The notes: generated by a model not told the origin, from the letters alone. 64,000 nt of DNA from Lysobacterales bacterium (GCA_022844165.1 JALHMH010000018.1:1-64000); one strand, 5' to 3'; positions 1,808 through 36,790 are shown, numbered from the stretch's first letter. A program made the numbers and translations.

Positions 1808-3349
1808 ATGATCCGTCTCGCAATGGCCCTATTGGCTGCCACACAGTTCAACATCGCAACTGCCGCCGATAAGATCGAGCAGCAGGAACAGCTGATTTTC
1901 GACACGCAGAAGGGCACGGGACTGCCCGGTGCGCTCGATACCAGCTTTGGCACTGGCGGGCGCTTGACGATCAGCATCGATCCCTCGCCGACCCTGGAAG
2001 ACGACGCCATCATCGCTGCGCCGCGCTCGGGTGGTGGCTATCTCATCTACGGCTACTTGCCATCGACCGGCGACATCGTGATCAACGGACGCACCGAAAT
2101 CGGCGCCGTCGATACCAGTTTCGGCGTTAACGGTCGTGTGACCCACGACCGCCAATTCCTGTCGGTCGAAGCCGCCGCCATCGATAACCAGGGGCGCGTG
2201 CTGATTGTCGGCAACTCGCGCGAGTCCGGCAGCCCGAGCAGCGATTTCGATCCCTACGTGTGCCGCTTCACGGCCGGCGGTTTTCCCGACACCGCCTTCG
2301 CCAGCGCCACCGGCTGTGCGTTGTTCCCGGTCGACATCATCGCCAATGGGTTCGACTACGCCACCAGTGTCGCCACCGACGCCAGCTTCGTTTATGTGGC
2401 CGGACAAATGCAGCGCGACACCATCGACGACTACGACTTCCTGGTGATGAAGATTCGCGCATCCGATGGAACGCTGGTCACGTCTTTCGATGGCGACGGC
2501 ATGGTGTTCATTCCATTCGATATCAACGCCACCGAGCCAGGCGGCGACATCGACGCCGCGCTCGCCATCGTGCGCGACGGCGATGCCGGCCTGTACATCG
2601 CCGGTTACGCCGACAACGATGGCGACTTCGATAATGATTGGGCGATCGCCAAAATCGACATTTTCAGCGGCGCTTATGTCACCAGTTTTTGCCCCAACCA
2701 AACCGCATGTCCAGGCAGCGAAGTGCTGGCCGGACGCCGGCATCTGCCGATCATCACTACTTTCGGCGAGAACAGCGAGCAAATCCAGGCGCTGGCCTTG
2801 GCTGCGGATGGCGATCTGCTGATGGCGATCCAGCGTGGCGCGCAGGTGAGCGGCAATCCGGTCAACCAGATCGAAACGCTGAAGCTCAATCGCACCACCG
2901 GCGCGACTATCGCGGGTCAAAACGACGCACGCACATACCTTCGTTATGCCAGCGTCAGCGATATGGCCATCGACAGCACCGGCAACGTGCTGCTGAGCGG
3001 TGTCAGCAGCCAATCGTTGGGCCTCTTCGGCGCCGACCCCGGCCGCGTGATCTTCGTCACGCGCCTGACGCCCACGCTCGACGGCGACAACAGCTTCGCC
3101 ACCGCGCTCGGCGGCGGCCCGTCGCCCACCGCGCTGATCGATTTCCCACGGAATCCCAGCTCCACGCTGCTCGATCACCGCAGCAAGGAGATGGTGATCG
3201 ACGCATCCGGGCGGATCGTCGTCGCCGGCTCCCGCCTCTGGCGCCGCGACACCGCGACCAACGTGTTCGACTACGACCACGCCATTTTCCGCCTGTACGG
3301 CAGCGGCGCGCCGGCAGGGCCGAACATCTTTGCCAATGGCTTCGAATAG
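1808..3349 (+). CDS. Secreted delta-60-repeat-like beta-propeller protein with C-terminal IFANGFE
   Basis: Signal peptide MIRLAMALLAATQFNIATA; repeated LDTSFGTGG, VDTSFGVNG, LVTSFDGDG motifs; ends NIFANGFE; alternative ATG at 1778. Confidence 0.8.
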   Translation: MIRLAMALLAATQFNIATAADKIEQQEQLIFDTQKGTGLPGALDTSFGTGGRLTISIDPSPTLEDDAIIAAPRSGGGYLIYGYLPSTGDIVINGRTEIGAVDTSFGVNGRVTHDRQFLSVEAAAIDNQGRVLIVGNSRESGSPSSDFDPYVCRFTAGGFPDTAFASATGCALFPVDIIANGFDYATSVATDASFVYVAGQMQRDTIDDYDFLVMKIRASDGTLVTSFDGDGMVFIPFDINATEPGGDIDAALAIVRDGDAGLYIAGYADNDGDFDNDWAIAKIDIFSGAYVTSFCPNQTACPGSEVLAGRRHLPIITTFGENSEQIQALALAADGDLLMAIQRGAQVSGNPVNQIETLKLNRTTGATIAGQNDARTYLRYASVSDMAIDSTGNVLLSGVSSQSLGLFGADPGRVIFVTRLTPTLDGDNSFATALGGGPSPTALIDFPRNPSSTLLDHRSKEMVIDASGRIVVAGSRLWRRDTATNVFDYDHAIFRLYGSGAPAGPNIFANGFE

Positions 3350-3474
3350 GTGCTGTGGCGAAGGCGAACGATCGCTCGCTCAGATTTCTGGGCGAGCGCT
3401 TGCGATAGCGCGTCGACCTGTCCCGAGCCTTCGACTGGCGACAGGTCAAATGCTTGTCTTGTAGCGCCGCGGCG

Positions 3475-3867
3475 TCAGCTCCACAGTTCCAAGCGCAGTC
3501 CCGGTACTCGCTCGAATTCGCGCGTGTTGTGAGTAACTAAGGTCGCGTCCTCGGCAAGCGCGTGCGCTGCGATGAGCATATCCATACCGCCAATGGGCAT
3601 GCCGGAGCGCTCCAGGCTGGATCGAAGCGACGCGTAGTGCGAGGCCGCGGTCAGCGGCCAATCGCGAACCGATATGCCGCCGAGGAATTTCTCAATCGTC
3701 GCGCTCAAGGCTGCGGATCCCCGCTTGACCGCGCCGAACCGCAACTCCGCCGCCACCAGCGCAGAGATTGCGATTTCATTCACCGGTATGTCCCGAAAAC
3801 GCTCAATCACCGTCCTCGGATGAGCGCGCAAGACGTAGCTGCAGATGTTGGTATCAAGCATTCTCAT
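3475..3867 (-). CDS. vapC: VapC PIN-domain toxin
   Basis: [11 protein letters not shown]...ELRFG...[38 protein letters not shown]; start overlaps the antitoxin end. Confidence 0.93.
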
Positions 3868-4111
3868 CGCGGAACCATTCGCGATCTTGCGCTGCCGCTT
3901 GCTCGCGATTCTCCAGAAAATCCGCCGGCACGGGTTCCGTGGTGGCGTAGAGATCCGACAGCCATTCGCCCAGCGTGACGGGTTTCGGCCGCAACAGCAC
4001 GCCGTTAGCAACGCGTTCTACAAACACCTCCTTGCCCTCGAACCGAAACTCCGCCGGCAAACGCACGGCTTGGCTGCGTCCATTGATGAATAGCTTTGCG
4101 GTCTGCGGCAT
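3854..4111 (-). CDS. vapB: VapB antitoxin (AbrB/MazE fold)
   Basis: [21 protein letters not shown] signature; directly upstream of the PIN toxin. Confidence 0.93.
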
Positions 4112-4294
4112 CGTCGATCCGGTATATATCTTCGGAATAGATCAGAGTTTACGCGGAGTCGGCCGATGGGTCCATGGTCAAGCGGACAAGCAAAGCGCTG
4201 ACGCCCGACAGCGGTTGAGCCAGGGCGTGAAATTCCTGCCGGATTTTTCGACGGCTTGCGTTTGGTAGAGACAGACCCCCTTCGGAGGTGCCGG

Positions 4295-4567
4295 ATGTCT
4301 CGTCAGACCATCTTGCTGTTCATCGCGCTGGGGCTGCTGATGTCGCAGCTCGGCGCACGGTCCAGCGCCAGTTATCAGATCCCGAGACAGTCGGTCGATG
4401 CCGGCGCCGGGGCAGCCAGCAGCGCGAGCTATCAGCTGCGCGGCACGCTCGGACAGCCCGATGCCGGCGCAACGTCGAGCGCCAGCTATTCGCTGACGGG
4501 CGGTTTCCACAAGGCCGCCGTTGCCGGCCCGCAGCCGGATCCGATTTTCGCCAACGGTTTCGAATGA
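4295..4567 (+). CDS. Small secreted protein (90 aa) with three SSASY repeats and C-terminal IFANGFE
   Basis: GGAGGT RBS at about 4284; signal peptide MSRQTILLFIALGLLMSQLGA; GTLGQPDAG...YSLTGGF; ends DPIFANGFE. Confidence 0.8.
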   Translation: MSRQTILLFIALGLLMSQLGARSSASYQIPRQSVDAGAGAASSASYQLRGTLGQPDAGATSSASYSLTGGFHKAAVAGPQPDPIFANGFE

Positions 4568-4604
4568 ACACTCATCCAAACACCGCCGCATCCAGGAGTG
4601 CGCC

Positions 4605-6887
4605 ATGACTTTCCGCGTCCGTCCCTTCGTTCTTGCCATGGCGCTGGCCATGTCGAGTTTCGCTTCCGCGCAGGTGCCGATTTCCGCCGAGTTCACTTAC
4701 CAGGGTGAGCTGCGCGTCGCCGGCAGCCCGGCGAACGCCAACTTCGATATGGAATTCCGGCTCTACAACGCATTCTCTGGCGGCAGCCAGATTGGTTCTG
4801 CGGTCACCAGCCTGGGCGTGGCGGTCAGCAACGGCCTGTTTACGACGCAGCTGGACTTTGGCGCCGCGCAGTTCGCCGGCGATGCGCAGTGGCTGGAGAT
4901 CCGCATCAAGCCCTCCGGCAGCGGCGCCTTTGAGGTCCTATCGCCGCGCACCGCGCTGAGCGTATCGCCGTACGCCTGGGCCGCCCGCAATGCCCTCGGC
5001 AACTCGGTCACCGGCACCAGCATCGTTGATGGCAACGTGACCAGTATCGATATCGCCGACGGTAGCATCGCCGCCTTCGATCTGGCCGCCGGCGCCGTCA
5101 ACAGCAGCAAAATCGAAGACGGTACCGTGGGCCTCGCCGATATCGACACCGACCAGGTCCAGGGTCGCGTTTCTGGGTTTTGCCCAGCCGGATCGAGCAT
5201 CCGGGAAGTGCTCGCGAACGGCAGCGTCACCTGCGAAACCGACGATGGTGGCGGGGGCGGCGGAACCGTCACCAGCGTGGCGACTGGCGCCGGCTTGACT
5301 GGCGGGCCGATCACCACCAGCGGCACGCTCAGCATCGCGTCTGGCGGCGTGACCAGCGCGATGATCGCCGATGGTACGGTGACGAATGCCGACCTGGCAG
5401 CGAACTCGGTCAATGCCGGCAACATCGTCGATGGCACCGTGGGTTCGGCAGAGATCAACAGCGCGCAAGTGCAAACGCGCGTCAGCGGCGCGTGCGTCGT
5501 TGGCAGCGCTGTGCGGGCAATCAACGCCGACGGTACGGTGAGTTGCGAGAGCGATGACATCGGCTGGAGCCTGGGCGGCAATCTCGGCACCAATCCGGCA
5601 ACCAACTACATCGGCACCTTCGATGCCCAGCCGTTCGTGATTCGCACGCAAAACGCGCGCAGCTTGCGCATCGAGCCTAGCGCCGAGCAATTCAGTGGCG
5701 CCCCGATCACGACCAATATCATCGCTGGATCGAGCGCGAACAACGTCACCAGCGGCGTGCGCGGAGCGACCATCGCTGGTGGCGGTTTGCCGAATGGAAA
5801 CAGCGATCCGTTCTTTTCTGCGGAGGCCCCGAATCGGGTGACGGACTTGTTCGGCACCGTGGGCGGAGGGTTCGGCAACCTTGCAGGCAACGACATCGGC
5901 ACATTGACCGATTCGCGCCTTGCGACTGTCGGCGGTGGGGAAGGCAACATCGCCTCAGACAACTGGAGTACCGTGGGCGGTGGTCTGACCAACCTCGCCA
6001 GCGGCGTTACCAGCATCGTGGCAGGCGGCTTGAGAAATACGGCAGCAGGTTCGTCCAGCATGGTGCTTGGCGGCGATTTCAATTGTGCCGGTGGTGTTGG
6101 CGCCATGGCCGGCGGCTTCCGCGCTAAGGTTCGGGTGCGCGCAGGCGTGACGGCTCAGGAAATCGGAATCGGGTGCGCCGGTGTGCCCAATTCCGGCGAT
6201 GCTGACGGCGATGAAGGCAGTTTCGTGTGGGCTGATTTACAGATCGGAGACTTCGTGTCGAGTGGACCGAATCAGTTTCTGGCGCGTGCGGATGGCGGTA
6301 TCGGCTTCAATCGCGACCCCGGACCGAACGACGACTTGGTACTCAAAGCGCGCGCGGTAGCGGGCGATGCCAGCGCTGACCTCAGAATGTACACTCGCCT
6401 TGAGAAGACGGCTGCCTTCCAACTGGAAGAATCCAGCGGTTCCTTGCGGATCTCGGTACCCTCGATCGTGGGCAGCAGCCCGCGCCTGGTGGTCGAGGGA
6501 GGCAGCGGCGGCCTCGCCACACTCACCAACGGCGGCAGCTGGACCAATGCCTCTTCGCGCAGTTTCAAGGCCGGATTCCACGCCGTCGACACCTTGGACG
6601 TTCTGGCGCGCGTGGTCGATTTGCCGATCACCACCTGGAACTACATCGGCTCGGCCGAAGGCCTGCACATGGGCCCGGTAGCCGAGGACTTCAAAGCCGC
6701 ATTCGGACTGGCGGGCGATGGCAAATCCATCTCCACCGTCGATGCCGATGGCGTGGCGCTGGCAGCGATTCAAGGCCTGAACCAGAAACTCGAAGCGGAG
6801 AACGCAGCGCTGCGCAAAGAGATCGAAGCGCTGCGCGAGCTGGTGCTCACGCGTGTCGCGTCCCAACCGGCCGAGTCGGACTATTGA
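4605..6887 (+). CDS. Secreted fibre-like protein with C-terminal peptidase S74-like (intramolecular chaperone) domain
   Basis: AGGAG RBS; signal peptide MTFRVRPFVLAMALAMSSFASA; FTYQGEL N-domain; IxDGxV repeats; TVGGGxxN repeats; C-terminal SSRSFK...HMGPVAEDF...ALAAIQGL plus coiled coil. Confidence 0.82.
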   Translation: MTFRVRPFVLAMALAMSSFASAQVPISAEFTYQGELRVAGSPANANFDMEFRLYNAFSGGSQIGSAVTSLGVAVSNGLFTTQLDFGAAQFAGDAQWLEIRIKPSGSGAFEVLSPRTALSVSPYAWAARNALGNSVTGTSIVDGNVTSIDIADGSIAAFDLAAGAVNSSKIEDGTVGLADIDTDQVQGRVSGFCPAGSSIREVLANGSVTCETDDGGGGGGTVTSVATGAGLTGGPITTSGTLSIASGGVTSAMIADGTVTNADLAANSVNAGNIVDGTVGSAEINSAQVQTRVSGACVVGSAVRAINADGTVSCESDDIGWSLGGNLGTNPATNYIGTFDAQPFVIRTQNARSLRIEPSAEQFSGAPITTNIIAGSSANNVTSGVRGATIAGGGLPNGNSDPFFSAEAPNRVTDLFGTVGGGFGNLAGNDIGTLTDSRLATVGGGEGNIASDNWSTVGGGLTNLASGVTSIVAGGLRNTAAGSSSMVLGGDFNCAGGVGAMAGGFRAKVRVRAGVTAQEIGIGCAGVPNSGDADGDEGSFVWADLQIGDFVSSGPNQFLARADGGIGFNRDPGPNDDLVLKARAVAGDASADLRMYTRLEKTAAFQLEESSGSLRISVPSIVGSSPRLVVEGGSGGLATLTNGGSWTNASSRSFKAGFHAVDTLDVLARVVDLPITTWNYIGSAEGLHMGPVAEDFKAAFGLAGDGKSISTVDADGVALAAIQGLNQKLEAENAALRKEIEALRELVLTRVASQPAESDY

Positions 6888-7043
6888 TCCGCCCAGAATC
6901 ACCCGGCGATTTAAGTTCAGCGACGGGGCAGGGGGCGGGGGAGGGAGGCCAAGCGCTTCGTCGATGCCGTTGACCGCTTTAGCCTGGCAGACGCAGGAAA
7001 GTGCTTACGAAGGGGTTCATGCTCGGCCCGTGACCCCCGCCCC

Positions 7044-8819
7044 TCACTCAAACCCGTTCGCGAACACCGAGTTACTGCTATAGCGAACATCCAGGAACGG
7101 GCGTGCACTGCCGATCGTTTCGGCGAGGCCGCGGTGGCTCAGGGCCGAGCCAGCCACCCGCCGGATTGGCGTGGTGCCGTCCGCCTGCAGCTGCTGCACC
7201 TCATCGATCGTGGTCCGCAGCTCAGCCTCCGCGGGCAAGACCGCGTCGCCGTCCTTGAAGCGCACGTTGTCGACGCCGGCATTGGTGGCGTTGAAGCTCA
7301 GCCGAAACTGGGTCAAGCCACCGGTGTGGATCGCCGCTATCCCGGACGGATCCAGATCGATCCGCAGCGCGTCGAACTCGTTGACGACCGAACCGACGAA
7401 ACAACCCACATTGCTGGCATCGGCTTCTTCGGTCGCATCGCCCGGCTCCACTTCCGGCGCGCCGAATCCGCCACCGGCAATGTCCAGTCGCGGCGCGCCG
7501 AGCGCGCCTGTAGTGAACGGATTGCTGCCGCTGCGCCCGTCCTGCAACAAGTACAGAGCGGCTGATTCAATCACGGCATCGGCCGGAATCATGCTGGTGT
7601 CGAAGGACACCATGCCGTGGACCAGTCGGCTGCCATCGTCCCCAACGATGATCGACCCGTTGCCGGTTTGGACGCCGTTGGTCCAGCCATCGAAGTTGCC
7701 GCCCTGTGAAGAGATACTCAGCGAAACCTCGCCTCGGAAGCGGGGAAAGAAGTGGGTCTCGGCCTGCACCGCGACCTTGTACCGATAGCCTTCTTCATCG
7801 AGGTGAATCGGATCGGCCGAAATGCCGAAGTTGGTGCGGAAGTTCTCGCGCAGACTCGGCCGGTTCGGCTGACCGGCTGGGAAAGGCAGATAATCCGGCG
7901 CCGACTGGCCCGGCCGCGGCAGCACGCCGGGCGCGGCCACGCCATCACCGTAGTAGTGGTGCATCTCGCCGACAGCGTGATCGAAAAACAGTCGCGTATC
8001 GGCGTTCGTCCAGCCGATCCGGCTGGCTTCCACGTCGACAATCATCGCGTTGATCTGGGCGTCGGTGACCAGATCATTGTCCGGGTTGCGGCTAAGGTCG
8101 CGCCGTTTTGGGCAGGCGTAGATGAAGCACCAAAGAGCCGATACATTGAAGTTTGGATATTCGTAGCTGGACACCAGCACATCCAGCCCCGGCCGCACCG
8201 CCAGGAAGGCCTGCGCGATGCTGTCGCTGTGGGCGAGGATACGCGCGAACAAGGCCGCTTCCGATCCGGGCACGTCCAGGTCCATGTCTTTGTACCAGCC
8301 GCCACCCGAGCGTCCCGCCAGCACATCGTTGCCCCCCAGGCTGAACACGACTGTGTCGATCGTTGGCAGGGTCTGCAACTCGCTGACCACATTGGCGATC
8401 CACGGATAGCTGGCGGTGTTGACCCACTCGCGCGCCTCACTGCCCGAGATTGCGTATTCCGGCCCGCTGTGACCCGGGCCTGGGTTCTCGCCCAGCGAAC
8501 GGCTCACTGCGAGCTTGTCGGCATGCCCGAAGCGATCGAAGATCTGGTTGTGCGTATCGTCATCCCACATGAACTGCGCCCAGCTGTCGCCAGCGATCAG
8601 TACGCGTGGCGCAGCCTGCGTGGCCGGACAAGCTCCAGCGATACGCGCGGGTTGCGCGTCGCGATCGCGCGTGCCGCTGTAGTTCCACGGGTAGGGCCCG
8701 TTCCAGCTCGAACCCTGCGTGGTGGCAGGGCCCGCAGAGCAGGCAGCCTGCGAAATCAGCATGCACAAGAGTGCCAGCGCGCCTGCGAGGGTAGTTTTTG
8801 TGTGATTCATGAGGTTCAT
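7044..8819 (-). CDS. Secreted SGNH/GDSL-family hydrolase with C-terminal beta-rich domain and VFANGFE
   Basis: Signal peptide; IAGDSW (block I), AISGS (II), SLGGND (III), DPIH (V); ends NSVFANGFE. Confidence 0.8.
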   Translation of the reverse strand: MNLMNHTKTTLAGALALLCMLISQAACSAGPATTQGSSWNGPYPWNYSGTRDRDAQPARIAGACPATQAAPRVLIAGDSWAQFMWDDDTHNQIFDRFGHADKLAVSRSLGENPGPGHSGPEYAISGSEAREWVNTASYPWIANVVSELQTLPTIDTVVFSLGGNDVLAGRSGGGWYKDMDLDVPGSEAALFARILAHSDSIAQAFLAVRPGLDVLVSSYEYPNFNVSALWCFIYACPKRRDLSRNPDNDLVTDAQINAMIVDVEASRIGWTNADTRLFFDHAVGEMHHYYGDGVAAPGVLPRPGQSAPDYLPFPAGQPNRPSLRENFRTNFGISADPIHLDEEGYRYKVAVQAETHFFPRFRGEVSLSISSQGGNFDGWTNGVQTGNGSIIVGDDGSRLVHGMVSFDTSMIPADAVIESAALYLLQDGRSGSNPFTTGALGAPRLDIAGGGFGAPEVEPGDATEEADASNVGCFVGSVVNEFDALRIDLDPSGIAAIHTGGLTQFRLSFNATNAGVDNVRFKDGDAVLPAEAELRTTIDEVQQLQADGTTPIRRVAGSALSHRGLAETIGSARPFLDVRYSSNSVFANGFE

Positions 8820-8867
8820 CCTGACAACGAGCGAGGCTCCGCCTTGCCGGTCGCCCTTGCCACTGTT

Positions 8868-9698
8868 TCAGGCGACCCCATCTGGCGGCAGCGTGACGCA
8901 GCGATTGCGGCCGGCATTCTTGGCAGCGTACATCGCCCGGTCAGCGCGCGCCAGAAGTGCATCGGCAGTGTCGTTGGCATCGCCCAGACAGGTCACCCCG
9001 AGACTTGCGGTCACGCTACCTCTTCCGGCCATGCCGCCCCAGTCGAAAGGCATCGATTCGAGCGTAGCGCGGATGCGCTCGGCTGCTGCGTTCGCCTGCG
9101 CCAGCGTGGTACCGGGCAGGAGCGCGACGAACTCCTCGCCGCCGTAGCGTGCGATCAGGTCGTACGGCCGAAGCGCCTCGGCCAGCACCTGACCGAGGCG
9201 CTCCAGCACGGCGTCGCCCGCGGCGTGACCGAAGGAGTCGTTGATCGCCTTGAACTGGTCGACATCGATCAGGATCAGCGCGAGCGACTGCGGCTCGCGC
9301 CGACTGCGTTCGATCTCTTCCCGCAGGCGCGCCAGGAAATAGCCCCGGTTGAAGAGTCCCGTCAGGTGGTCGCGGATCACCGCAATCTGCAGCAATCCGC
9401 GGGCTTGTTCCACTTCGAAGAGCAGCCCAACCGCGTAGTAGCTGGCCAGTGGCGCGATCACCAGGGGCACGGTGAAGGCGATCGCAAGGTCGAGCGCCAG
9501 ATTGGCGATGTTGTCGACCGCCACATTGATCAGTGTGGTCAGGACCAGCGACATCAGTATGGATGCAGCCGTGATCACGGCCACCGTCGGTTTGTGCCCC
9601 ACACGCAACATCCAGCTTCGCCAGCCGTTGGTATCACCTCCGCCGAAGTCGGTCGGGGCGTTGCGGGAACCACTGGGCGGGGCGGGACGCGTTTCCAT
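8868..9698 (-). CDS. Membrane diguanylate cyclase (GGDEF)
   Basis: Two TM helices; DHLTGLFNR, DVDQFKAINDSFGHAAGD, RPYD I-site, RYGGEEF; start uncertain (9611 or 9698). Confidence 0.9.
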   Translation of the reverse strand: METRPAPPSGSRNAPTDFGGGDTNGWRSWMLRVGHKPTVAVITAASILMSLVLTTLINVAVDNIANLALDLAIAFTVPLVIAPLASYYAVGLLFEVEQARGLLQIAVIRDHLTGLFNRGYFLARLREEIERSRREPQSLALILIDVDQFKAINDSFGHAAGDAVLERLGQVLAEALRPYDLIARYGGEEFVALLPGTTLAQANAAAERIRATLESMPFDWGGMAGRGSVTASLGVTCLGDANDTADALLARADRAMYAAKNAGRNRCVTLPPDGVA

Positions 9699-10296
9699 CG
9701 GCCCGGATAGTACAGGCCGCCTGCCATGACGAAACGAGGAACCGCCCTTTTGCACACACTTTTTGCAGATGCGTGTGCACACGCGGTTCTGCCAGAGGGC
9801 AGGCACAGGAAGATACGGTTCGAATTCAATTGGTGTCGTGCGCGCGCAACGCGCCGGGCGCAGCCGGCGGTCAGCTTGAGCGAGAACCTGCCCTGACCCC
9901 GGTCTCCGGCAGGCGCCGGCTCCTGTGGCGGCTCACGGCGCGCCGACCGGCATCCCGCGCCCGTCGGGTGCACTGGCATCCTAACGGTAGTTCTCTGACC
10001 AGGTCGCCCATCCAGGCCCTCCCGTTACATAGGCGGCACCGAAGCCCCCGGTGGCACCAGGAACCGATTGTTGATCGCCTGCATGTTCGCGTAAGTGCCG
10101 CCCCCTTGCGCCTCCAGCACGAGGTTCCATGCGCTGGTGTGGAATGGTCGGTCAGCGGCGGCAGGGCAAGCGCCAGTCCGTGTGGGTGCGCAGGACTTAT
10201 GCGCTTGAGCGAGTGGGGTCCGGTCGTTCTGCAGGCCTGCGGCGTGCCGCGACAGCCGACGACAATCGGCCGCATGGGTGTGCGCATCGAGGACGC

Positions 10297-12707: not shown

Positions 12708-12744
12708 GCGTTGGCATCCTAGCGATGTCCAGCCCTTGCTGGAT

Positions 12745-12774
12745 GCAGTTAAACCTGCGCGTGGAGACGTTCAG
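12745..12774 (+). promoter_or_regulatory. Putative LytTR binding site (two 9-bp direct repeats, 12-bp spacer)
   Basis: GCAGTTAAA-N12-GACGTTCAG resembles the LytTR consensus [TA][AC][CA]GTTN[AG][TG]; lies between the LytS/LytTR operon and the divergent hydrolase. Confidence 0.45.
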
Positions 12775-20360: not shown

Positions 20361-22295
20361 TCACTCGAATCCATTGGCGAACAGGTTTTCGCCGCTGGGC
20401 GCCAACCGTGCTCCTGTCAGCCGGGCGACCAACCCACTTTCGCCAGCGGCCGAGCTGCTACCCCAGGTCGGGACGTTGGTCGTTGGCACCGCGTTGCCCA
20501 ATGGCAGGTTGGCAGCATCGACGAGATTGGAGCCGACGGTAACAACAGCGTCAGGCGAAAACGCAATGCCTGACAGCCGCGTGTTGTCGCCCCCTGCGCC
20601 GGTCGAAGTGTCCCAGGCGCCGACGATCAATGAGCTGTAGCGCAGCCCGCTCAAGTCCGGCGTATAAACCCGCACGAACTGATTCCAGGCGCCCGCTGGT
20701 GGGTTACTCTGATTCGGGCGCGGCATCAGTTGAAATGCATCGGTGGTGGTTATCGTTCGCCGACCTTTGCACAACACGCCAACGGCACCATCCGTAGCAA
20801 TGGCGATTTCGCCGGAGAACCCGGCATCTGCGCCGCAGCGAGTGGTGTTCACGTCTGGCCATCCCGCGTTTGGGTTAGGCCAGCCGCCGAGCAGCGGATC
20901 CGGGTGAGCGGCGCCGTAGTTGTTGCCGCCTTCGACGAACTCAGCCAAATAGGTTGCGGCAAGTACGCGCCCGTCGTTGAGGCGAAAACTACCCAGCCAG
21001 CTGATGTGGATATTGCCATTGGTCCCGGTAAACTGATTCTGAAATCCGTTGCTGCCAGAACTGGCAGCGAGCGCATTGCCGCGCCAGAAGTTGATCGTAT
21101 TATTGCCGTGCGTGCGCGCCAGTACGATCAGGCGGTTTTGCCCATGGTCGATGGCCAGGCCATCAACATATTGATCCGGAGAAGAGTTGGCCGAGGTCTC
21201 CTGATACAACCGATCCCACCAACGCAACTGCCCATTCGCCGTCATTGCGACCACCGCCGGTTCGAAATCCGGATTGCCGCCGGGCAACACCGATTGCGTG
21301 CTATAGCCGAAATACAAGTCGCCGTTGCGGCGATCGAGCGTGATCGCGCCAACACGCTGCGTACGTGCCGAGTTGGCGCGATAGCCGGTGTATCCTGGGC
21401 CTGTATTCGGACATGTGTTCGTGCCCGCCAGCGCGCACGCACCGGTGTGGTAATAGTCGTCTGGGAATTTGCCCTGGCGGCCCGCGTTGCCATTGGCGTC
21501 GCTGCCGAGCAGCGCATAGTCGGCGGCGTTGATCGAACGTAAGCTGCCGCGCCGATTAACCTTCATCACCACTGCGCTGTATCGAAGCGGCGCGCTCGCG
21601 GCGTTCGGATAACTCGATGCCGGCGTGCCATCCCATTCGCTGAAATTGCCCTCGCTGCCATGCCAATGCGCGTGCCAATGTTCGATCACGCGGCGCCCAC
21701 CGCTGGCGTCGATCGTCTCGATTGCAGCCCAGTTGGTATCGAAGCCGCGGCCCGTGGCATAGAACACATTACCCTGCCCATCCACATCCCACGGCTGGCG
21801 ATCCTTGTGATCGCCGCTCGCGCGAACGTTGAAGATCATCGCAACACCGCTCGGTGGCGCCGATACGAAGTTCCCGTTGAGCCTCGCCAGGTAATAACCA
21901 TCATTGGTCGAGCCATCGCGGCTGCCGGAGATAAAAACGTTCCCAGTGGGACTTCCAGGCACTTCCGTTGTGCGAATCTTGAACACATCGCGCACGGTGC
22001 CGTTGGGAAAGTGCACAACCCGCAATGGCGTCGCCAGATCGGCCGACACGTGCAGTACGAATCCCACGTTACCGGCCGAAGTCGAGTCGATACCGGTCGC
22101 AGTCAAGGCAATGCGCGGTAGCGATGGTGCGAGCCAATTGAGGTTTTGCGCCTGTCCAGCAATCAGATACGTGCCATCGGACAGCCGATGCACGTCATTG
22201 AAACGCTCTCGTTCTGCTGCGCCGGCGAAAAACACGCGGTTCTGCGCAGATGCCACGCTCGTGATCGACAGCAATACGAACCAAAGCCAGCGCAT
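20361..22295 (-). CDS. Secreted uncharacterised beta-rich protein with C-terminal LFANGFE
   Basis: Signal peptide MRWLWFVLLSITSVASA; Gly/Asn/Trp-rich with propeller-like strands; ends ENLFANGFE. Confidence 0.75.
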   Translation of the reverse strand: MRWLWFVLLSITSVASAQNRVFFAGAAERERFNDVHRLSDGTYLIAGQAQNLNWLAPSLPRIALTATGIDSTSAGNVGFVLHVSADLATPLRVVHFPNGTVRDVFKIRTTEVPGSPTGNVFISGSRDGSTNDGYYLARLNGNFVSAPPSGVAMIFNVRASGDHKDRQPWDVDGQGNVFYATGRGFDTNWAAIETIDASGGRRVIEHWHAHWHGSEGNFSEWDGTPASSYPNAASAPLRYSAVVMKVNRRGSLRSINAADYALLGSDANGNAGRQGKFPDDYYHTGACALAGTNTCPNTGPGYTGYRANSARTQRVGAITLDRRNGDLYFGYSTQSVLPGGNPDFEPAVVAMTANGQLRWWDRLYQETSANSSPDQYVDGLAIDHGQNRLIVLARTHGNNTINFWRGNALAASSGSNGFQNQFTGTNGNIHISWLGSFRLNDGRVLAATYLAEFVEGGNNYGAAHPDPLLGGWPNPNAGWPDVNTTRCGADAGFSGEIAIATDGAVGVLCKGRRTITTTDAFQLMPRPNQSNPPAGAWNQFVRVYTPDLSGLRYSSLIVGAWDTSTGAGGDNTRLSGIAFSPDAVVTVGSNLVDAANLPLGNAVPTTNVPTWGSSSAAGESGLVARLTGARLAPSGENLFANGFE

Positions 22296-27067: not shown

Positions 27068-27113
27068 ACGTGATCGCAGCCACAATAGTGCCTGCACTGT
27101 ATCATCGATACGT

Positions 27114-27500: not shown

Positions 27501-27590
27501 ACAAGCCGGACCCGGTTTTCGAGCGCTTCACCCCGAAACGCCGTGCCTCAACAATGCGAGCTTATCGGTATGCGGCAAAGGCGGACCAGC

Positions 27591-27869: not shown

Positions 27870-28001
27870 ATCTGTCTCCGGTTGGCGTTCGTTCGTTTCA
27901 TCTCGGCGCATTCTCTGTAAGAACGTGATGGAGCGCAAAAGCGGTCATGGCCCTGGCGCGAGAGAATTCACGTATTCATCTTCATCGAACAGGGGAGCGT
28001 C

Positions 28002-30140
28002 ATGCGCGCATTGGCATTGCTGTTGTTTCTCGCGCCGACCATGGTCGCCGCCCAGGCGACACCGCATCCCATCTTGTTCGTCACGCAAGTGCCGGTGCCG
28101 GTCGATTTTGCCGCCGTCGGCAGCACTTTCGCCAATCATCTGGCTGACATGGGCAGCGTCTGGCGCGGAGGCGATCTTTGGATACGCTATCCCGACGGCA
28201 GCTTGCGAAATCTGACCGCCGAGGCTGGTTTCGGCAATGCGGGTTTTCAGGGCACGGGGGCGATCGCCGTGCGCGACCCCGCAATGCATTGGGACGGCGA
28301 GCGCGCTGTGTTTTCGATGGTCGTGGGTGCACCGCCGAATCAGTTCCAGCAACTTTCGTTTCGCTGGCAAATGTATGTTGTGACGGGTTTGGGACAGGGC
28401 GAAACGGCATCGATCACGCTGGTGCCGAATCAGCCGCCGTACAACAACGTGATGCCCGCCTTTTTGTCGGACGGCAGTCTGGTGTTCTCCTCCGATCGCG
28501 CCCGCGATGGCTCGGCGCACCTGTATCCGCAGCACGACGAATACGAGTCCACCGAAACGGTTACGGGTCTTTGGCGCCTCGCGCCAGACGGCGCATTGAC
28601 CTTACTCGACCATTCGCCCTCAGGCGACTTTGATGCTTTTGTCGATAGTTTTGGGCGACTGTTGTTCACGCGCTGGGATCATCTGCAACGCGACCAACAG
28701 GCCGAAGTTCCCAGCAACCAAAACTTCGACTGGGCTTCCGAGGCAGCGAATGCCGCCACATCGGTGCCCAGCGAGGTATTTCCCGAACCGCGACTGGCTG
28801 TGGCGGGGTCGGGCGTCAACGGGCACCGTTTGAACAGTTTTTTTCCGTGGGAGCTGCGTCAGGATGGCACCCACGCCGAGTTCCTCAATCACCTGGGCCG
28901 CCACGAGCTGCAGGTGTATTTCGACCGCAGCTTTTCGAGCGACAACAACTTGCGCGAGTTCATCGCCGAGATCAGCGGTCGCACCAATCCGCGCGGCATC
29001 GAAAACATGTTCCAGATCAGCGAACACCCGAACACGCCGGGCCGCTATCTCGCCATCGACGCGCCCGAGTTCAATACCGCAGCCTCGGGGCAACTGCTGC
29101 GGTTCGATGCAGCCCCGAGCGTCAACCCCGACGATGTGGTGATCGATTATTTGACGCCGCGCAGCACCTTCGGCACAGCGCCAGCGGCCGATCACAGCGG
29201 CCACTATCGCAATCCAATTTACTTGAGCGACGGCAGCATCGTGGTCGCGCACACGAGCGAGCAGGGCGGCCTCGCCAACGTCGGCACCAATACAGCACCA
29301 CAGCCGAACTACCGCTTCCGACTCAAACGGATGGTCAATGGCGTGGGCGGCTTTTTGACGGCGGGCACGCCGTTGACCAACGGCATCAACAAGACCGTGA
29401 ATTGGTGGAGCCCAGATGTTGCGGTCAGCTACAGTGGCGAACTCTGGGAGTTGAGCCCGGTCGAAGTCCGCGCCAGAACGGTGCCGCCATTGACAAGCGA
29501 ACCGCCGCTCGCGGCGCCCGAAGCCGCCGCGTTTGCGGCTGCCGGCGTTGCACCGAGCACGTTCAAGGCCTTCTTGCGCGCACAGAATTTGGGATTGATC
29601 ACGGTGCGCAACAACACCGCACGCGATGATGCCGACCGCCAACAGCCGTTCCGTCTTCGTGTGCCCGGCGGCGTTAGTCATTTGCCCGGTACCGGTGCGA
29701 TTTACGACATACGCCATTTTCAACTCGTGCAAGGGGATCAGGTGCGGGGCATCGGTGGCGCGGCCAGCCCAGATCCAGGCCGTCGCGTCCTGGCGCGCTT
29801 CATGCACGGTCTGCCGGCAACGCTCAATCCCCCGAATCCCACCGGCCCGGCGAGCAGCGTCGGTATTTTTAGCGACGGCTCGTCCGCTTCGTTTGTGCCG
29901 ACACGTCGGGCGCTCAGTTGGCAAACCACCGATCCGGGCGGAACGCCTGTCGTCCGCGAGCGATTCTGGCTGACGCTGCAACCGGGCGAAATCCGTGCCT
30001 GCGATGGTTGCCACGGCGTCAACCGTGCCGGCCAGTCTGGACAATCGGCGGCTACCAATACGCCACAAGCGTTGATCGATTTGCTGCAGCGCTGGAGTCA
30101 GGCGAACGGCGGACTCATGTTCGCCGACAACTTCGAGTAA
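28002..30140 (+). CDS. Secreted hydrazine synthase alpha-like (propeller plus HZS_alpha-like) c-type heme protein with C-terminal MFADNFE
   Basis: Signal peptide; TolB-like VRDPAMHWDGERAVFSM and LVFSSDR; LLFTRWDH; ERFWLTLQPGEIRACDGCH (CxxCH); ends LMFADNFE. Confidence 0.75.
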   Translation: MRALALLLFLAPTMVAAQATPHPILFVTQVPVPVDFAAVGSTFANHLADMGSVWRGGDLWIRYPDGSLRNLTAEAGFGNAGFQGTGAIAVRDPAMHWDGERAVFSMVVGAPPNQFQQLSFRWQMYVVTGLGQGETASITLVPNQPPYNNVMPAFLSDGSLVFSSDRARDGSAHLYPQHDEYESTETVTGLWRLAPDGALTLLDHSPSGDFDAFVDSFGRLLFTRWDHLQRDQQAEVPSNQNFDWASEAANAATSVPSEVFPEPRLAVAGSGVNGHRLNSFFPWELRQDGTHAEFLNHLGRHELQVYFDRSFSSDNNLREFIAEISGRTNPRGIENMFQISEHPNTPGRYLAIDAPEFNTAASGQLLRFDAAPSVNPDDVVIDYLTPRSTFGTAPAADHSGHYRNPIYLSDGSIVVAHTSEQGGLANVGTNTAPQPNYRFRLKRMVNGVGGFLTAGTPLTNGINKTVNWWSPDVAVSYSGELWELSPVEVRARTVPPLTSEPPLAAPEAAAFAAAGVAPSTFKAFLRAQNLGLITVRNNTARDDADRQQPFRLRVPGGVSHLPGTGAIYDIRHFQLVQGDQVRGIGGAASPDPGRRVLARFMHGLPATLNPPNPTGPASSVGIFSDGSSASFVPTRRALSWQTTDPGGTPVVRERFWLTLQPGEIRACDGCHGVNRAGQSGQSAATNTPQALIDLLQRWSQANGGLMFADNFE

Positions 30141-30225
30141 GTGCCGCGCCTTTGCGCGCCGAATCGGCGCGCCTGCTCCGCACGAACGGCGCAACGCGTA
30201 GTCTTGTCAGCCTCTCGATGACCGG

Positions 30226-32931: not shown

Positions 32932-33270
32932 TGATCGGCAGCGCTGGCTGTGTTGGCTTCGATCCGGAATCGCGTCCAGCGCAATCATCCGGGCGCGATT
33001 GGCTCTGTCACGGAAAGAGAAGTCGAAAATCGGAATGAACAGCAAGTCGTAGACAGGCGGCGTGCGACTGAAGGATGAGTCAGTTCAAATTGCGCATCCA
33101 GCGAGCTGTTTAACTGGATCGAAGAGGCCTATCGCGCTGCATGAGGCCTGGTGGCAACCAACACGCCTGCAGCCCGAAGTCCCAATTGACGGACACTGAG
33201 CGACAACCGCTGCACTGGATCTCAACGCTATCCTGCACATGTGCGGCATTGGCGAAACAGGAGCATTTGG

Positions 33271-34554
33271 ATGCATCAGGCCCCACGCGCCACGGCGGCT
33301 GCGGTCGTCGGCACGGTCTTCGAATGGTTCGACTTCTTTCTCTACGGCAGCCTCGTTGCGGTTCTGAGCGCGCAGTTTTTTCCTTCAGATCAACCGACCG
33401 CAGGACTGTTGGCAGCGCTCGCCGCCTATGGCGCAGGCTGGATCGTGCGGCCGCTGGGCGCACTGTACTTTGGGCGTATGGGAGATCGGATCGGGCGTAA
33501 GAAGACGTTCTTGATCACGATTTCGCTGATGGGCGGCGCGACCGTTGCGATCGGTTGTTTGCCAACCTATGCCCAGGTGGGGCTGCTCGCACCCACGCTG
33601 CTCGTCGCGCTGCGCTTACTGCAGGGATTTGCGGTGGGCGGCGAGTTTGGTGGTGCGGCTACGTACGTCGCGGAACACGCGCCCGATCGGCATCGCGCGC
33701 TGTACACGAGTTTGATCCAGGGTACGGGAACCTTGGGCTTGTTGTTAGCGCTGTTGGTGATCGGCGGCGTGCGTGCCGCGCTCGGCGCCGAGGCGTTTAA
33801 CGACTGGGGATGGCGGGTGCCGTTCCTGCTGTCGATTCTGCTGCTTGCGCTGTCGATTTACATGCGCTTGTCGCTGCACGAGTCGCCGTTGTTTGCACGC
33901 GCACAGGCGGCCGGGCAGCTCTCCAAATCGCCATTGAAGGAAGCGTTTTCCAGTCGCGAACACGTACGCTCGATGGGTCTTGCCATTCTCACGCTGACGA
34001 TGGCGCAAGGCGTGGTCTGGACCACCGGGCAGTTCTTCCCGTTGGTGTTCATGCAATCGACACTGGGGCTTGACGTGGGTGTCGCTTCGGGCGTGATGGC
34101 GGCGGTGCTCGCGGCCAGCGCGCCTTTGTTTCCCGCTGCGGGTTGGCTCGCCGATCGTATCGGTCGCCGTCCGGTGGTGATTGGTGGCTTTGTGCTGTCG
34201 GCGCTACTGATCATGCCGGTGTTCAAGGGTCTGGGCGCGGCCGCAGCGCCATTTTCGTTCGGCGCGGCATTCGCCTGGCTGATGCTGCTTGCGATACCAG
34301 TCGCATTGGTGTGTGCACCCGCGAGCGCCTATCTCGTGGAGTTGTTCCCCACACGCATTCGCTACAGCGCGATGGGCTTGCCCTACCACTTGGGCAACGG
34401 CTGGTTCGGCGGTTTCATGCCGCTGGCCACCGCGGCCATCGGCGCACACTTTGGCGATCCCTATGCGGGCTTTTACTACTCGATCGCATTGTCCATTGCG
34501 TGCGCACTTGCGGCCTTTTTTCTCATGCCAGAGACACGCGGGCGAGCGCTGTAG
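33271..34554 (+). CDS. MFS transporter, metabolite:H+ symporter family
   Basis: GTVFEWFDFFLY, GDRIGRK, GGEFGGA, WGWRVPF, ELFPTRIRY; AGGAG RBS. Confidence 0.93.
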   Translation: MHQAPRATAAAVVGTVFEWFDFFLYGSLVAVLSAQFFPSDQPTAGLLAALAAYGAGWIVRPLGALYFGRMGDRIGRKKTFLITISLMGGATVAIGCLPTYAQVGLLAPTLLVALRLLQGFAVGGEFGGAATYVAEHAPDRHRALYTSLIQGTGTLGLLLALLVIGGVRAALGAEAFNDWGWRVPFLLSILLLALSIYMRLSLHESPLFARAQAAGQLSKSPLKEAFSSREHVRSMGLAILTLTMAQGVVWTTGQFFPLVFMQSTLGLDVGVASGVMAAVLAASAPLFPAAGWLADRIGRRPVVIGGFVLSALLIMPVFKGLGAAAAPFSFGAAFAWLMLLAIPVALVCAPASAYLVELFPTRIRYSAMGLPYHLGNGWFGGFMPLATAAIGAHFGDPYAGFYYSIALSIACALAAFFLMPETRGRAL

Positions 34555-34589
34555 CGCCGCCACGGAGCGGCGGCGCGTCCGATCACGCG

Positions 34590-36790
34590 TTATTCGAAGC
34601 CATTCGCAAACACACCGTCATTGTCGAAGGTATGCGACCAGACGCCACGGCCCAGCGTGCCTGCATAGAGCGTCTGAGTGGATGGCACGTAGCGCAGGTC
34701 GAATACCAATACGTCCGGTAACGCGCTGCCGAGTTGCGACCAGACAGCGCTATCGACGGCCGCTGTGTAAACGCCCGATCGTGTGCCCAGTGCGACCTCC
34801 CCGCGGCCAGCGAGAAACTCAATCGTGCGGAAGTCGACGGACGAGATCGCGCCTAGATTTCCGGTGACATCGGTCCAGGTCACGCCGGCGTCCGTTGAGC
34901 GAAACACCTGGTTGTCATCGATCGCGAAGACCAGGTTGCTGGTGGCTGGGTCCATCGCCACGTCAGTGATCGTAGCAGCACCAGCAGGCAAGGCCGAAGT
35001 GACCACAAAGGTGGCCGTTCCCGGCGCGCGGTAATGCACGGCTGCGCTGCGACCGACGTAGGCAACTTCGGGTGCGGCCGTCGCACCGTAAGCCATCGCG
35101 TTGCGATTAGCGCCAGGGCCGCCGAGCGACGTGAGTGTCGGTGCGCCGCTGTCGGCGTTCGTCGATTCATAGATGGTATTGACCCCGCCGACCAACAATC
35201 GCGATGGATTTGCGGCGCTCAGTTCGGTGGGCGTAACGAATTGCGGGTCGGCAATGTTCGGCATCCCCAAATTCCCGGTCTGCGTGTTCGTCATATCAAA
35301 CGCGGCACGGCGAAAACCGCCGAGGTTCTGTGCGCTAATGAAGCGGAAACTGCTCGCCGGCGTGCGCGCGCGATCGTCGATCACAACATCGCCGCCGTCG
35401 CCACTGTTAATCCAGCGCCATCGCGGATCGACCGCCGTGACCTGCATATGCGTGCCGTTATCCTGGGTACCGATCACCAGGATGTTACTGACGCTGTCGT
35501 GATCCAGATCGTGCACCTCCATCACATTGAGATTTCCGTTGACCGATACCCACGCCCGCGTGGAGGCGCCTGGGTTGCTCAAGCGATAGACGCCGCCGTC
35601 GTCGCTTTGCAGAAGATTTCCGGCGGCATCGAACGCCATCGCACGGCTGTCGGCATGGGGCGCCGTGTTGTTCGCACCGCCGTCGACGACCGAAGTCGCC
35701 TGGGCACCCAGCGTCGAGGCTGCGTTAACGCGAAACACACTGCCTGTGAACGGGCTGGCTGTGATGCGGTCCCCAGCGATGTAAACCACATTCCCATCCA
35801 GCGGATCGGCGGCGATCGACGTATTGGTACCGCCCTGGCCTCCGGGGTGGATGTTCGGTTCATCGAGCGCAACCCAGGTTGCGCCTCGATCCGGCGAGCG
35901 CATCAACGCAGTAATTCGCCCGGCCTGGACAACAATGACGAAGACGCTCTGCCCAGGCCCAACTGCGATACGAATCCGACTATTCGCCGGCGCCACGTCG
36001 GTCAACCCGGCGGTGATGTCAGTCCATGTCGCGCCGAAATTTTCGCTGCGATGCACAGTGCCGTTGCGCACTGCGGCGTAGAGCCGGTTGCTATTGGCCG
36101 GATCGACGACCAAATCGTGGATGCCGCCGGTGGGCAAGACGCTGCCTGAGACGTTGGTCCAAGTCGCACCCGTATCCGACGAGCGGAACAAGCCGCCGCC
36201 AAACGACGCTGCCAAGATCTCTGCGCCGCGCGCTTGCACGCCAACGAGTTTCTGACCAAGCAGATCCGTACTGCCGAGCAGCGTCCAACTCAGACCGCCA
36301 TTGGTTGTGCGGTACACGCCAATCTCATCGTCGCCGCGCTGCGCGAAATTGCTCCAGCGGCCAAGACCGGCCACGAGTGTCTGTGAGGTCGCATCGGTCG
36401 GGTCGAAACTGATGGCACCGATCGATTGCGACGGCATCCCGTCGGTCAGCGGCGCCCAACTCGGACGCGCGGCGAGCGCGTCGTTGGTTCGCCAAACGCC
36501 ACCATTGACGCCGCCGATATAGAGAATGTTCGCATTCGTTGGGTGCGGCGCGAGCGCGTGCACAGCGCCCGAAACTTCGTTGTCCGGGGGACTCTGACTT
36601 GCGCCGAAAATGTTGGCGCTGGACCGCGTTCGATCCAGGTCGCACCGCTGCCGCGATCAGACTGCATCGGCGGGACGATCGCGGGCCGCTCCTCGGAAGG
36701 GTCCACCGGTTCGGCATCGCCGAGTACGGTTGGTCGCGACACACAACCGGTTAAACAGCTCAATGCAAGAATCAGGAGGATGCGGTTCAC
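34590..36790 (-). pseudogene. Lipoprotein with Asp-box/BNR beta-propellers and C-terminal VFANGFE; 1-nt frameshift at G5 run 36586-36590 (pseudogene or sequencing error)
   Basis: GTG at 36790 gives MNRILLILALSCLTGC (lipobox). One extra C joins ..AQVRVPPDNEVSGAVHALAPHP to the 34590..36563 ORF, which has RTTNGGLSW, RSSDTGATW and RSTDAGVTW Asp-boxes. Confidence 0.8.

Follow-up and report, generated by a model that had tools for sequence, protein, structure and literature searches.

Several prokaryotic sorting systems place one C-terminal tag on many different cargoes, among them PEP-CTERM with its exosortase, IPTL-CTERM, MYXO-CTERM and LPXTG with its sortase (see the panel in the accessible part of bioRxiv 10.1101/2023.06.07.544157). 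The same plan of many cargoes and one tag is found in a stretch of 64,000 nucleotides from a Lysobacterales bacterium (hereafter the window: C18:1-64000, that is, the first 64,000 positions of contig JALHMH010000018.1, in the 4.68 Mb, 59-contig genome GCA_022844165.1, here denoted G000), where six genes located between positions 1,808 and 36,790 end with a FANGFE-type heptapeptide. In a preliminary description of the window, this peptide was read as the mark of a candidate sorting or surface-attachment system on exported proteins. A portable C-terminal sorting tag is supported by the enrichment of signal peptides among the tagged proteins, the extracellular character of the cargo, the conservation of the peptide, its position outside the cargo fold and the slot that it occupies, and we consider it very probable that the conserved C-terminal add-on shared by about sixty unrelated exported proteins of G000, a bacterium of soil and water, is a lineage-specific sorting tag of some kind.

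The best correlate of the tag that we found is GspC with a PDZ-like domain, a type II secretion system (T2SS) component. The selection of T2SS substrates is a long-standing open question, and the tag co-varies with one T2SS variant. In the prevailing view, as given in the accessible part of PMC7949064, substrates are chosen by structural determinants that cannot be transferred in the form of a peptide. A role in docking substrates has been ascribed to the second periplasmic domain of GspC, and in Xanthomonas XpsC, a single helix takes the place of the PDZ domain found in OutC and EpsC (accessible sections of PMC11981180). In V. cholerae, EpsC's PDZ domain is needed for the secretion of one substrate, VesB, and the information involved is transferable (PMC12369372, in the sections available).

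A conserved C-terminal heptapeptide on exported proteins

The six tagged genes of the window all end as listed in the preliminary description. The first (positions 1808-3349, plus strand; the longest open reading frame (ORF) opens at 1778) encodes a delta-60-repeat propeller protein with a Sec signal (MIRLAMALLAATQFNIATA) and ends with NIFANGFE, the tag codons occupying positions 3326-3346 and the stop codon 3347-3349. The second (4295-4567, plus strand, with a TTG at 4256 as an alternative start) encodes a 90-amino-acid, Ser/Ala-rich protein with SASYQ repeats and a signal peptide that ends with PIFANGFE (tag codons 4544-4564). The product of the third (7044-8819, minus strand) is an SGNH/GDSL-like hydrolase with a Sec signal and a beta-rich C-terminal part, ending with SVFANGFE (7047-7067), and that of the fourth (20361-22295, minus strand) is an exported protein of 644 amino acids with a Sec signal (MRWLWFVLLSITSVASA) and the ending NLFANGFE (20364-20384), for which the Pfam and NCBIfam search gave no family match. 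The fifth gene (28002-30140, plus strand) encodes an exported protein of 712 amino acids that contains a PD40 repeat, an HZS-alpha-like domain and a single CxxCH haem motif at residue 667, and has the variant tag LMFADNFE (30117-30137).

The sixth gene is an Asp-box or sortilin-like propeller in its main frame (34590-36656, minus strand), which ends with GVFANGFE (34593-34613) and lacks a signal peptide. A lipoprotein signal (..LILALSCLTGC, with the lipobox LTGC and its Cys codon at 36743-36745) lies in an upstream frame (36448-36856, minus strand) that opens at 36856 and overlaps the main ORF, which opens at 36656, in a different frame; therefore, there is an apparent frameshift in this gene between about 36656 and 36448, reflecting either a pseudogene or an assembly error. 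A paralogue of this gene at locus L154 is intact, and the alignment between the two begins at residue 44 of the L154 protein. Thus, of the N-terminal signals attributed to all six proteins in the preliminary description, five are in-frame signal peptides, and the sixth is found only upstream, in another frame.

The wobble positions of the seven tag codons vary among the six genes, and the stop codons TAG, TGA and TAA are all present, so it is the peptide that is conserved, not a DNA repeat. Neither a transmembrane (TM) helix nor a basic tail follows the tag in the window proteins. The remaining genes of the window are untagged and have housekeeping or cytoplasmic roles, for example, those for PolA, ClpP, trigger factor, MnmE and malate synthase, and no sorting machinery is encoded among them. 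On all these points, namely the differing codons, the missing TM helix and basic tail, the restriction of the tag to non-cytoplasmic products and the lack of evident machinery in the window, as well as on the unrelated bodies of the tagged proteins, which belong to different Pfam and NCBIfam families, our results agree with the preliminary description.

The tag is far more frequent in G000 than expected by chance. The tripeptide GFE ends 58 of 3,649 crude gene calls, compared to 0.53 expected from the amino-acid composition, a roughly 100-fold excess, and the second most frequent C-terminal tripeptide occurs 20 times. Among the 44,225 ORFs of at least 60 amino acids in the whole genome, 70 end with GFE and 30 with the hexapeptide F[AS][NDG][GNDS]FE. 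Compared to these 30 terminal copies of the hexapeptide, only nine are non-terminal: four stop 1-2 residues short of the C-terminus, two come immediately behind a signal peptide, and the remaining three are situated within domains or between them. The logo derived from 54 tagged gene calls reads D(-9), x, [LVIM](-7), [FL](-6), x (mostly A), [NDS](-4), G, F, E, the Asx position -4 being N in 35 and D in 13 proteins (48 of the 54 together) and Ser in the other six. No hydrophobic stretch follows GFE in the six window proteins or in the 58 genome gene calls. In one G000 gene (C41:24767-27226, minus strand), the motif (..LLFANGFEGTSD..) sits in a linker between the N-terminal part, which by eye we take to be an AA10 lytic polysaccharide monooxygenase or a chitin-binding module, and the remainder of the protein, an arrangement that resembles a tagged protein fused to a downstream enzyme.

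The preliminary description had proposed that the tagged proteins be examined for enrichment in signal peptides, which we called with our own heuristic instead of SignalP. Under strict settings, 35 of the 54 tagged proteins are positive, compared to 409 of 3,347 other G000 gene calls (odds ratio 13, p = 6e-19), and under lenient settings, 51 of the 54 compared to 1,091 of 2,467 other genes; most of the 19 tagged proteins that fail the strict heuristic have ordinary signal peptides when inspected by eye. In a forced alignment of 55 tagged proteins, the bodies share 15-29% pairwise identity, and the tail alone aligns. The families that most of the 55 proteins match in Pfam and NCBIfam are all of extracellular types (here and below, tallies cover the best 25 of 44 Pfam and the best 25 of 40 NCBIfam families). 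They include enzymes, namely subtilases, reprolysin-like and M28 peptidases and endonuclease I, along with CotH, FG-GAP, PKD, Big, right-handed beta-helices, sortilin/Asp-box and DUF5122 propellers and CSLREA; the NCBIfam models for choice-of-anchor Q, choice-of-anchor D and delta-60 repeats are matched by four, one and five proteins, respectively. One tagged M36 peptidase obtains its best scores against the T9SS-dependent, myxosortase-dependent and rhombosortase-dependent M36 models of NCBIfam (T9SS, type IX secretion system).

In several cargoes, the tag can be located relative to the folded part of the protein. The choice-of-anchor Q domain of protein L118 stops 18 residues before the C-terminus, and the tag lies after the domain. 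Among the relatives of L118, orthologues of roughly 480 residues alone carry the motif; the giant beta-helix relatives contain zero or one copy (150 best representatives listed), and we therefore rejected the idea that the motif is a linker of general use. For the M28 peptidase L129, each of the 120 best homologues (52-87% identity) retains the motif, or something close to it, at its C-terminus: the motif is bare in 62, followed by 1-5 extra residues in 41 and replaced by a variant such as ADQFE or RDSFE in 17. Across 70 orthologues (51-87% identity), the linker after the last helix contains 0.9-1.9 bits per column and is interrupted by indels, compared to 2.4, 3.5, 1.7 (the x position), 3.2, 3.5, 4.1 and 4.0 bits in the tag columns, values comparable to those of the catalytic core; the Asx position is N or D in 64 of the 70. 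The alignment of L129 to the solved Aeromonas/Vibrio aminopeptidase stops at residue 430 of 449. In the AlphaFold2 (AF2) model of L129 (pLDDT, the predicted local confidence, 91.2; pTM, the predicted global score, 0.91), the last helix spans residues 419-438, and residues 441-449 have no secondary structure and a mean pLDDT of 58. The model of the SGNH protein of the window is weaker (pLDDT 71, pTM 0.77); its last strand covers residues 575-580, and within the tag (585-591), residues 587-591 have pLDDT values below 50. For the two cargoes modelled, the tag is thus predicted to be an add-on behind a variable linker rather than part of the cargo fold, in contrast to the possibility, raised in the preliminary description, that it is an integral strand of each cargo.

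The homologues of the SGNH protein show what else can stand at the position of the tag. The motif was found within the last 45 residues of 98 of the 120 homologues listed, always after a ..PFLD[VI]RY.. junction, and in the remaining 22, this junction is followed by something else. Ten of these 22 match PF13860, and the two of them that were scanned, P0224 (26.1 bits) and P0231 (25.5 bits), exceed the 23-bit cut-off of TIGR04183, the model for the T9SS type A sorting domain; P0220, P0226, P0237 and P0240 have a hydrophobic helix and a basic tail at the junction, and others have a further domain there. The tag occupies the slot in which homologues bear either the C-terminal domain of the T9SS or a sorting signal with a TM anchor.

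The same homologues differ in what follows the motif. It is bare in 7 of the 98 and followed by 1-6 extra residues in 36 and by 7-30 in 40; the other 15 share a longer conserved form, F-x-D-G-F-E-[ST]-G-D-x-S-x-W-S-A-T-V-P (P0151, P0152, P0159, P0175, P0176, P0207, P0209, P0211-P0216, P0218 and P0222), some of them from metagenome-assembled genomes (MAGs) labelled at the source as Acidobacteriota or Deltaproteobacteria. The two longer forms scanned, P0176 and P0212, matched no NCBIfam model. The tag is bare in the family to which G000 belongs; outside this family, the motif is often non-terminal and is followed by 0 to about 30 unconserved residues.

Distribution of the tag and its probable link to type II secretion

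The distribution of the tag is lineage-specific. The pattern FANGFE-stop was detected in 30 of 39 relatives of G000, including 22 of 22 genomes of its own family, with no matches for the reversed control. In a survey of 249 genomes of the order (Lysobacterales according to the record titles), each at least 90% complete, F-x-[ND]-G-F-E-stop was found in 140, with up to 76 matches per genome compared to 0-2 for reversed patterns; all these surveys counted the motif directly followed by a stop codon and hence underestimate its occurrence. Every genome searched had a match in families f1, that of G000 (13 of 13), f3 (7 of 7), f4 (27 of 27, up to 76 per genome), f5 (2 of 2), f6 (2 of 2), f9 (10 of 10) and f10 (35 of 35). 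The tag is sporadic in families f2 (2 of 38, one of which, G136, has 21 tags) and f12 (10 of 38), and in families f7 (14 of 38) and f8 (17 of 38), where counts are low. In 298 genomes from other orders of the class, there were never more than two matches per genome, as many as the reversed control gave.

When a single genome of each species was scanned, at least 117 stretches matched. Among the matches listed, 54 of 80 titles denote Lysobacterales-type taxa (Dokdonella, Tahibacter, Aquimonas, Rudaea, Ahniella, Pseudolysobacter, Rhodanobacteraceae and Lysobacterales), and the rest are 18 generic proteobacterial MAGs, 3 Alcanivoracaceae MAGs, 1 Marinicella, 1 Pirellulales and 3 false matches. 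The Acinetobacter-titled loci L029 and L072, the locus L108 and the Lachnospiraceae-titled L044 were discarded as tags: they contain an internal FANGFE-W in unrelated proteins, matched because the TRR of the search pattern also reads TGG. In the sporadically tagged genomes G217, G242, G177, G067 and G136, the tags are scattered around the chromosome, and we accordingly dismissed a tag island. The loss of the tag from a retained M28 cargo could not be observed because the five tag-free genomes searched have no M28 orthologue, only paralogous cores of 31-37% identity.

In G000, gspC adjoins gspD on contig C16. The GspC protein scores 69.7 bits against T2SSC and matches PDZ families with E-values of 1e-4 to 5e-4, below the Pfam cut-offs; the PDZ_6 cut-off is exceeded in one of five GspC orthologues. 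A GspC of this type is present in 118 of 128 genomes with at least two tags, compared to 25 of 121 genomes with fewer than two, and in 80 of 82 genomes with at least ten. The pattern recurs within families: in f2, the only one of 38 genomes with GspC is G136, the sole tag-rich one; in f12, the nine strong GspC matches come from the nine genomes with 2-12 tags, and the tenth tag holder, G141, has a single tag and no GspC match; and in genus g29, both genomes without this GspC have zero tags. T2SSC is not matched above the family cut-off in G052, G023 and G212, all of them tag-free, and is matched only partially in the likewise tag-free G111. In 32 hand-picked GspC sequences, the loop between strands beta1 and beta2 of the PDZ domain also differs with the tag: 21 genomes have a long form (PVMxxGKxxGVRL), at least four tags being present in 19 of them, and 11 genomes have a form that is 6-7 residues shorter, at least four tags being present in one of them; all six genomes of genus g14 with zero tags in this set have the short-loop GspC. 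The same contig of G000 encodes, approximately 6 kb from the gspD-gspC pair, a tagged protein ending with ..DSVFSSGFE (C16:8049-8684, plus strand), presumably an alpha/beta hydrolase to judge by eye from its N-terminal sequence; the genes in between look unrelated.

These observations can be accommodated in the following scheme. The heptapeptide core, which in G000 has the form D-x-[LVIM]-[FL]-x-[NDS]-G-F-E-COOH, would be joined via a short variable linker to cargo that crosses the inner membrane by the Sec pathway and then folds in the periplasm. The cargo would be recognised through its tag by one of the components of the T2SS variant with PDZ-like GspC and would then be passed on to the secretin. 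The preferred reader is the PDZ-like domain of GspC, in keeping with the docking of substrates ascribed to this GspC region and with the need of VesB for EpsC's PDZ domain; the GspC domain could bind the peptide as a small N-G-turn hairpin or as a strand. Internal hairpin ligands of PDZ domains are known, and the invariant N/D-G would favour a tight turn, such that the hairpin could be bound even when the motif is non-terminal. Alternatively, within the same route, the T2SS might only export the cargo, with the tag acting at a later step. On balance, we lean toward a connection between the tag and a PDZ-type T2SS route. That the PDZ domain of GspC reads the tag directly is a tentative proposal, and it is possible, although doubtful, that the heptapeptide is a linear, portable T2SS targeting signal carried by some 40-80 proteins per genome as an N-G-turn hairpin read by GspC, which, if true, would be the first of its type. 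When the PDZ region of GspC (residues 195-305) was modelled in complex with the 40 C-terminal residues of the SGNH protein of the window, in a run without controls, the score was 0.00 and the mark 0.32, which counts neither for nor against the scheme.

Several observations weigh against this scheme. Ten genomes with 2-24 tags (eight of family f8, plus G030 and G149) have no GspC detectable by protein search or with PF11356, and, conversely, 25 genomes with this GspC have at most one tag, including 18 of the 21 g14 genomes sampled. The link to the T2SS is a correlation among related genomes, so that Fisher values overstate it, and independent contrasts are few: G136 in f2, the f12 subgroup, G104 versus G090 in g44, and g29. 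Moreover, a PDZ-type GspC is common in other Gammaproteobacteria (EpsC, OutC), where the tag is absent from the 298-genome class sample; therefore, a PDZ domain by itself is no explanation for the tag. In the one case tested, the M28 peptidase, the cargo too is missing from the tag-free genomes; cargo, tag and T2SS type change together, and the order of dependence cannot be read from these data. Finally, given that the motif is often followed by extra residues, the sequences indicate that a free C-terminus or carboxylate cannot be a general requirement; with non-terminal copies both in homologues and in G000, the tag cannot be explained by the classical binding of a free carboxylate to a PDZ domain alone.

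Neighbours of the tagged genes and rival explanations

Clustering of 1,186 ORFs from 117 tag-bearing loci of other genomes identified only regulators among the recurrent untagged neighbours of tagged genes, namely extracytoplasmic function (ECF) sigma factors and Ser/Thr kinase-TPR proteins (10, 6 and 6 loci), and the neighbours were accordingly rejected as sorting enzymes. ECF sigma factors (PF07638) and Ser/Thr kinases with TPR adjoin tagged genes both in G000 (C55:16816-19446, C9:51303-54260, C3:25335-28244 and C47:28560-29315) and in 6-10 of the 117 foreign loci (L004, L017, L039, L040, L043, L062, L074 and L104), which suggests that the tagged secretome is under ECF/kinase control. In the window, the second tagged gene is overlapped by the start of a gene (4521-6887, plus strand) for an exported protein of 788 amino acids ending in a Peptidase_S74 (endosialidase intramolecular chaperone) domain, and the same pairing of a tagged repeat protein with a Peptidase_S74 protein is found at loci L086, L017 and L039 of other genomes, the last of which contains three small tagged ORFs. 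An untagged PIN-domain protein (3475-4011, minus strand) is encoded between the first and second tagged genes, and elsewhere in the window, a gene for a VIT/DUF2135 protein of 1,082 amino acids (37735-40983, plus strand) is followed by a 1,610-amino-acid ORF (41019-45851, plus strand), both untagged.

Rather than being read by the T2SS, the motif could be a site of processing or attachment after export, cut after Asn/Asp or Glu by a sortase-like peptidase of the periplasm or the surface, such as a PorU-like enzyme of family C25; the cargo would be fixed to lipopolysaccharide or another surface polymer, and the residues beyond the site discarded. If true, this would be the shortest attachment signal of the sortase-like type so far and, leaving the T9SS aside, the first that has no membrane anchor. 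The variable, unconserved residues after the motif are what would be expected of a leaving group. Asparaginyl endopeptidase ligases, such as butelase and OaAEP1, act at sites composed of Asx, a small and a hydrophobic residue near the C-terminus, with a short leaving group, and the Asx-Gly-hydrophobic core of the tag, with N or D in nearly all G000 tags and M28 orthologues, resembles such sites; Ser at the Asx position in six of the 54 G000 tags does not fit. The tag also takes the place of T9SS C-terminal domains, which are removed by the C25 enzyme PorU. G000 encodes two C25 proteins, PF01364 is matched in 81 of 128 genomes with at least two tags compared to 12 of 121 others, and in family f12, C25 is present in exactly the nine genomes with 2-12 tags. 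At two f12 loci, L181 (G217) and L183 (G177), the gene directly upstream of the C25 gene encodes a beta-helix protein with FADGF[DE] near its end, 8 and about 24 residues, respectively, remaining beyond the motif; the C25 peptidases at these loci, of the PorU/gingipain type, have about 930-950 amino acids, and a glycosyltransferase-like gene is located nearby.

However, C25 is missing from 47 of the 128 tagged genomes, and 24 genomes with at least ten tags have no PF01364 match, including the 100%-complete G136 and, in genus g33, 16 of the 18 genomes; conversely, the 12 other genomes with C25 have at most one tag. We therefore rejected a C25 PorU-like peptidase as an obligatory partner, regarding it as associated but dispensable. 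The C13 legumain/GPI8-like peptidases (PF01650), considered as an Asx-specific transpeptidase, were rejected as well: they are present in 38 of 38 genomes of the mostly tag-free f12, 2 of 35 of f10 and 0 of 7 of f3, the last two families being fully tagged, and thus do not track the tag. The copies located directly after a signal peptide are difficult to reconcile with a C-terminal cleavage site, and the search identified neither a consistent enzyme nor a candidate acceptor. A processing or attachment site is the main rival to the T2SS reading, although an unlikely one.

We consider it improbable that the motif is a docking strand, that is, the first beta-strand of a domain type that starts with ..F-x-[ND]-G-F-E-x-G-D-x-x-x-W.., bound non-covalently, by strand complementation, by a receptor with an incomplete beta-sandwich that would display the enzymes on cells or vesicles. 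The internal and N-terminal copies in G000, which continue as ..GFETNDTGGNW.. and ..GFEVGALAQYTPNQANW.., and the longer conserved ending of the SGNH homologues would fit such a domain start, as would the flexible position of the motif (N-terminal, internal or C-terminal), which is typical of a docking peptide, but the neighbour search uncovered regulators and no receptor, and the giant beta-helix relatives of L118 do not use the motif as a module boundary. Even less probable, in our assessment, is that the ending has no sorting role and is instead a habit of the lineage that caps the protein against proteases, aids its folding or is inherited as a neutral trait, or else a DNA-level repeat that includes the stop codon. 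Lineage-specific cargo families permit common descent of some of the endings; nevertheless, such an explanation would have to contend with unrelated cargo folds, varying codons and stops, 3-4 bits of information in the tag next to an unconserved linker in orthologues as distant as 51% identity, the excess over the compositional expectation, the preference for proteins with signal peptides and the presence of a sorting domain at the same junction in other lineages. Under either the T2SS or the attachment reading, the Lysobacterales secretome would become predictable from sequence in a simple manner, and the tag may serve as a compact export tag in biotechnology.

Comparison with known sorting systems

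The tag looks like an undescribed member of the C-terminal sorting tags, with no Pfam or NCBIfam model covering it. In an NCBIfam search with ten 40-residue tails that admitted E-values as high as 10, the sole model matched was choice_anch_Q, which lies upstream of the tag, so that the comparison with existing models proposed in the preliminary description brought up none for the tag itself, and there is no sorting-signal model among the best NCBIfam families of the 55 tagged proteins. The strings FANGFE, FADGFE and ANGFE were absent from the papers listed for them; the listed publications on the T2SS, C-terminal signals and Xanthomonadales, judging by titles and the beginnings of abstracts, describe no such motif, and we found no report of a conserved linear T2SS signal. 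A single order marks up to 76 proteins per genome with a heptapeptide that lies outside the fold.

Like the PEP-CTERM-type signals, the tag follows choice-of-anchor domains, is lineage-restricted and occurs in dozens of copies per genome. Those signals, however, are tripartite, the motif being followed by a TM helix and then a basic cluster, and the tag consists of the motif alone; because it has no TM segment, an intramembrane processing enzyme is unlikely. A conventional IPTL-CTERM-like sorting system coexists in G000 with the separate and far more numerous tag: approximately 8-10 proteins end with an IPTL or IPVN motif, a hydrophobic helix and an RR tail (C25:50126-54157, C18:74909-78229, C18:78393-80966, C26:57145-65067 and others). 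The GlyGly-CTERM/rhombosortase system is similar in that a short C-terminal signal is found on many unrelated Sec-exported proteins of one lineage (accessible parts of PMC3237569 and PMC13393428), and GlyGly-CTERM cargo such as VesB leaves the cell by the T2SS and needs the PDZ domain of EpsC (PMC12369372, in the sections available). It differs in having a TM helix and a basic tail that are cut by an intramembrane rhomboid protease, in contrast to the 7-9 residues of the tag without a hydrophobic segment, and the PDZ-dependent information of VesB has been mapped to an Ig-fold and not to a linear peptide (same source, same sections).

The T9SS type A C-terminal domain (TIGR04183) likewise marks the C-terminus of secreted enzymes of various kinds and has no TM helix; SGNH homologues bear a domain of this type exactly at the site of the tag, and C25 peptidases are enriched in tagged genomes. 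That domain, however, is a folded unit of approximately 70-100 residues, whereas the tag is a heptapeptide, its tails match neither TIGR04183 nor TIGR04131, and the PorU-type C25 enzyme is dispensable, as described above. The asparaginyl endopeptidase ligases, in turn, differ by the lack of co-occurrence of C13 with the tag and by the Ser that can replace Asx. Type I secretion signals are C-terminal, uncleaved and about 50 residues long, often after RTX repeats, on proteins without an N-terminal signal peptide, whereas the tagged proteins have signal peptides, and no RTX-type family is found among their best Pfam and NCBIfam families. The beta-signal of outer-membrane proteins ends with an aromatic residue of a barrel strand, in contrast to the terminal Glu of the tag, which is unstructured in the models and is attached to soluble enzymes and propellers.

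In terms of route, a further parallel is with the substrates of the T2SS, folded periplasmic proteins that carry a Sec or Tat signal and are selected for passage through the secretin. The tagged proteins share the N-terminal signals, according to the heuristic calls, and would pass through a similar periplasmic intermediate. The known determinants of T2SS substrates are held to be structural and not linear (PMC7949064, in its accessible part), whereas the tag is a portable heptapeptide and, if it is indeed read by the T2SS, would represent a new form of substrate signal.

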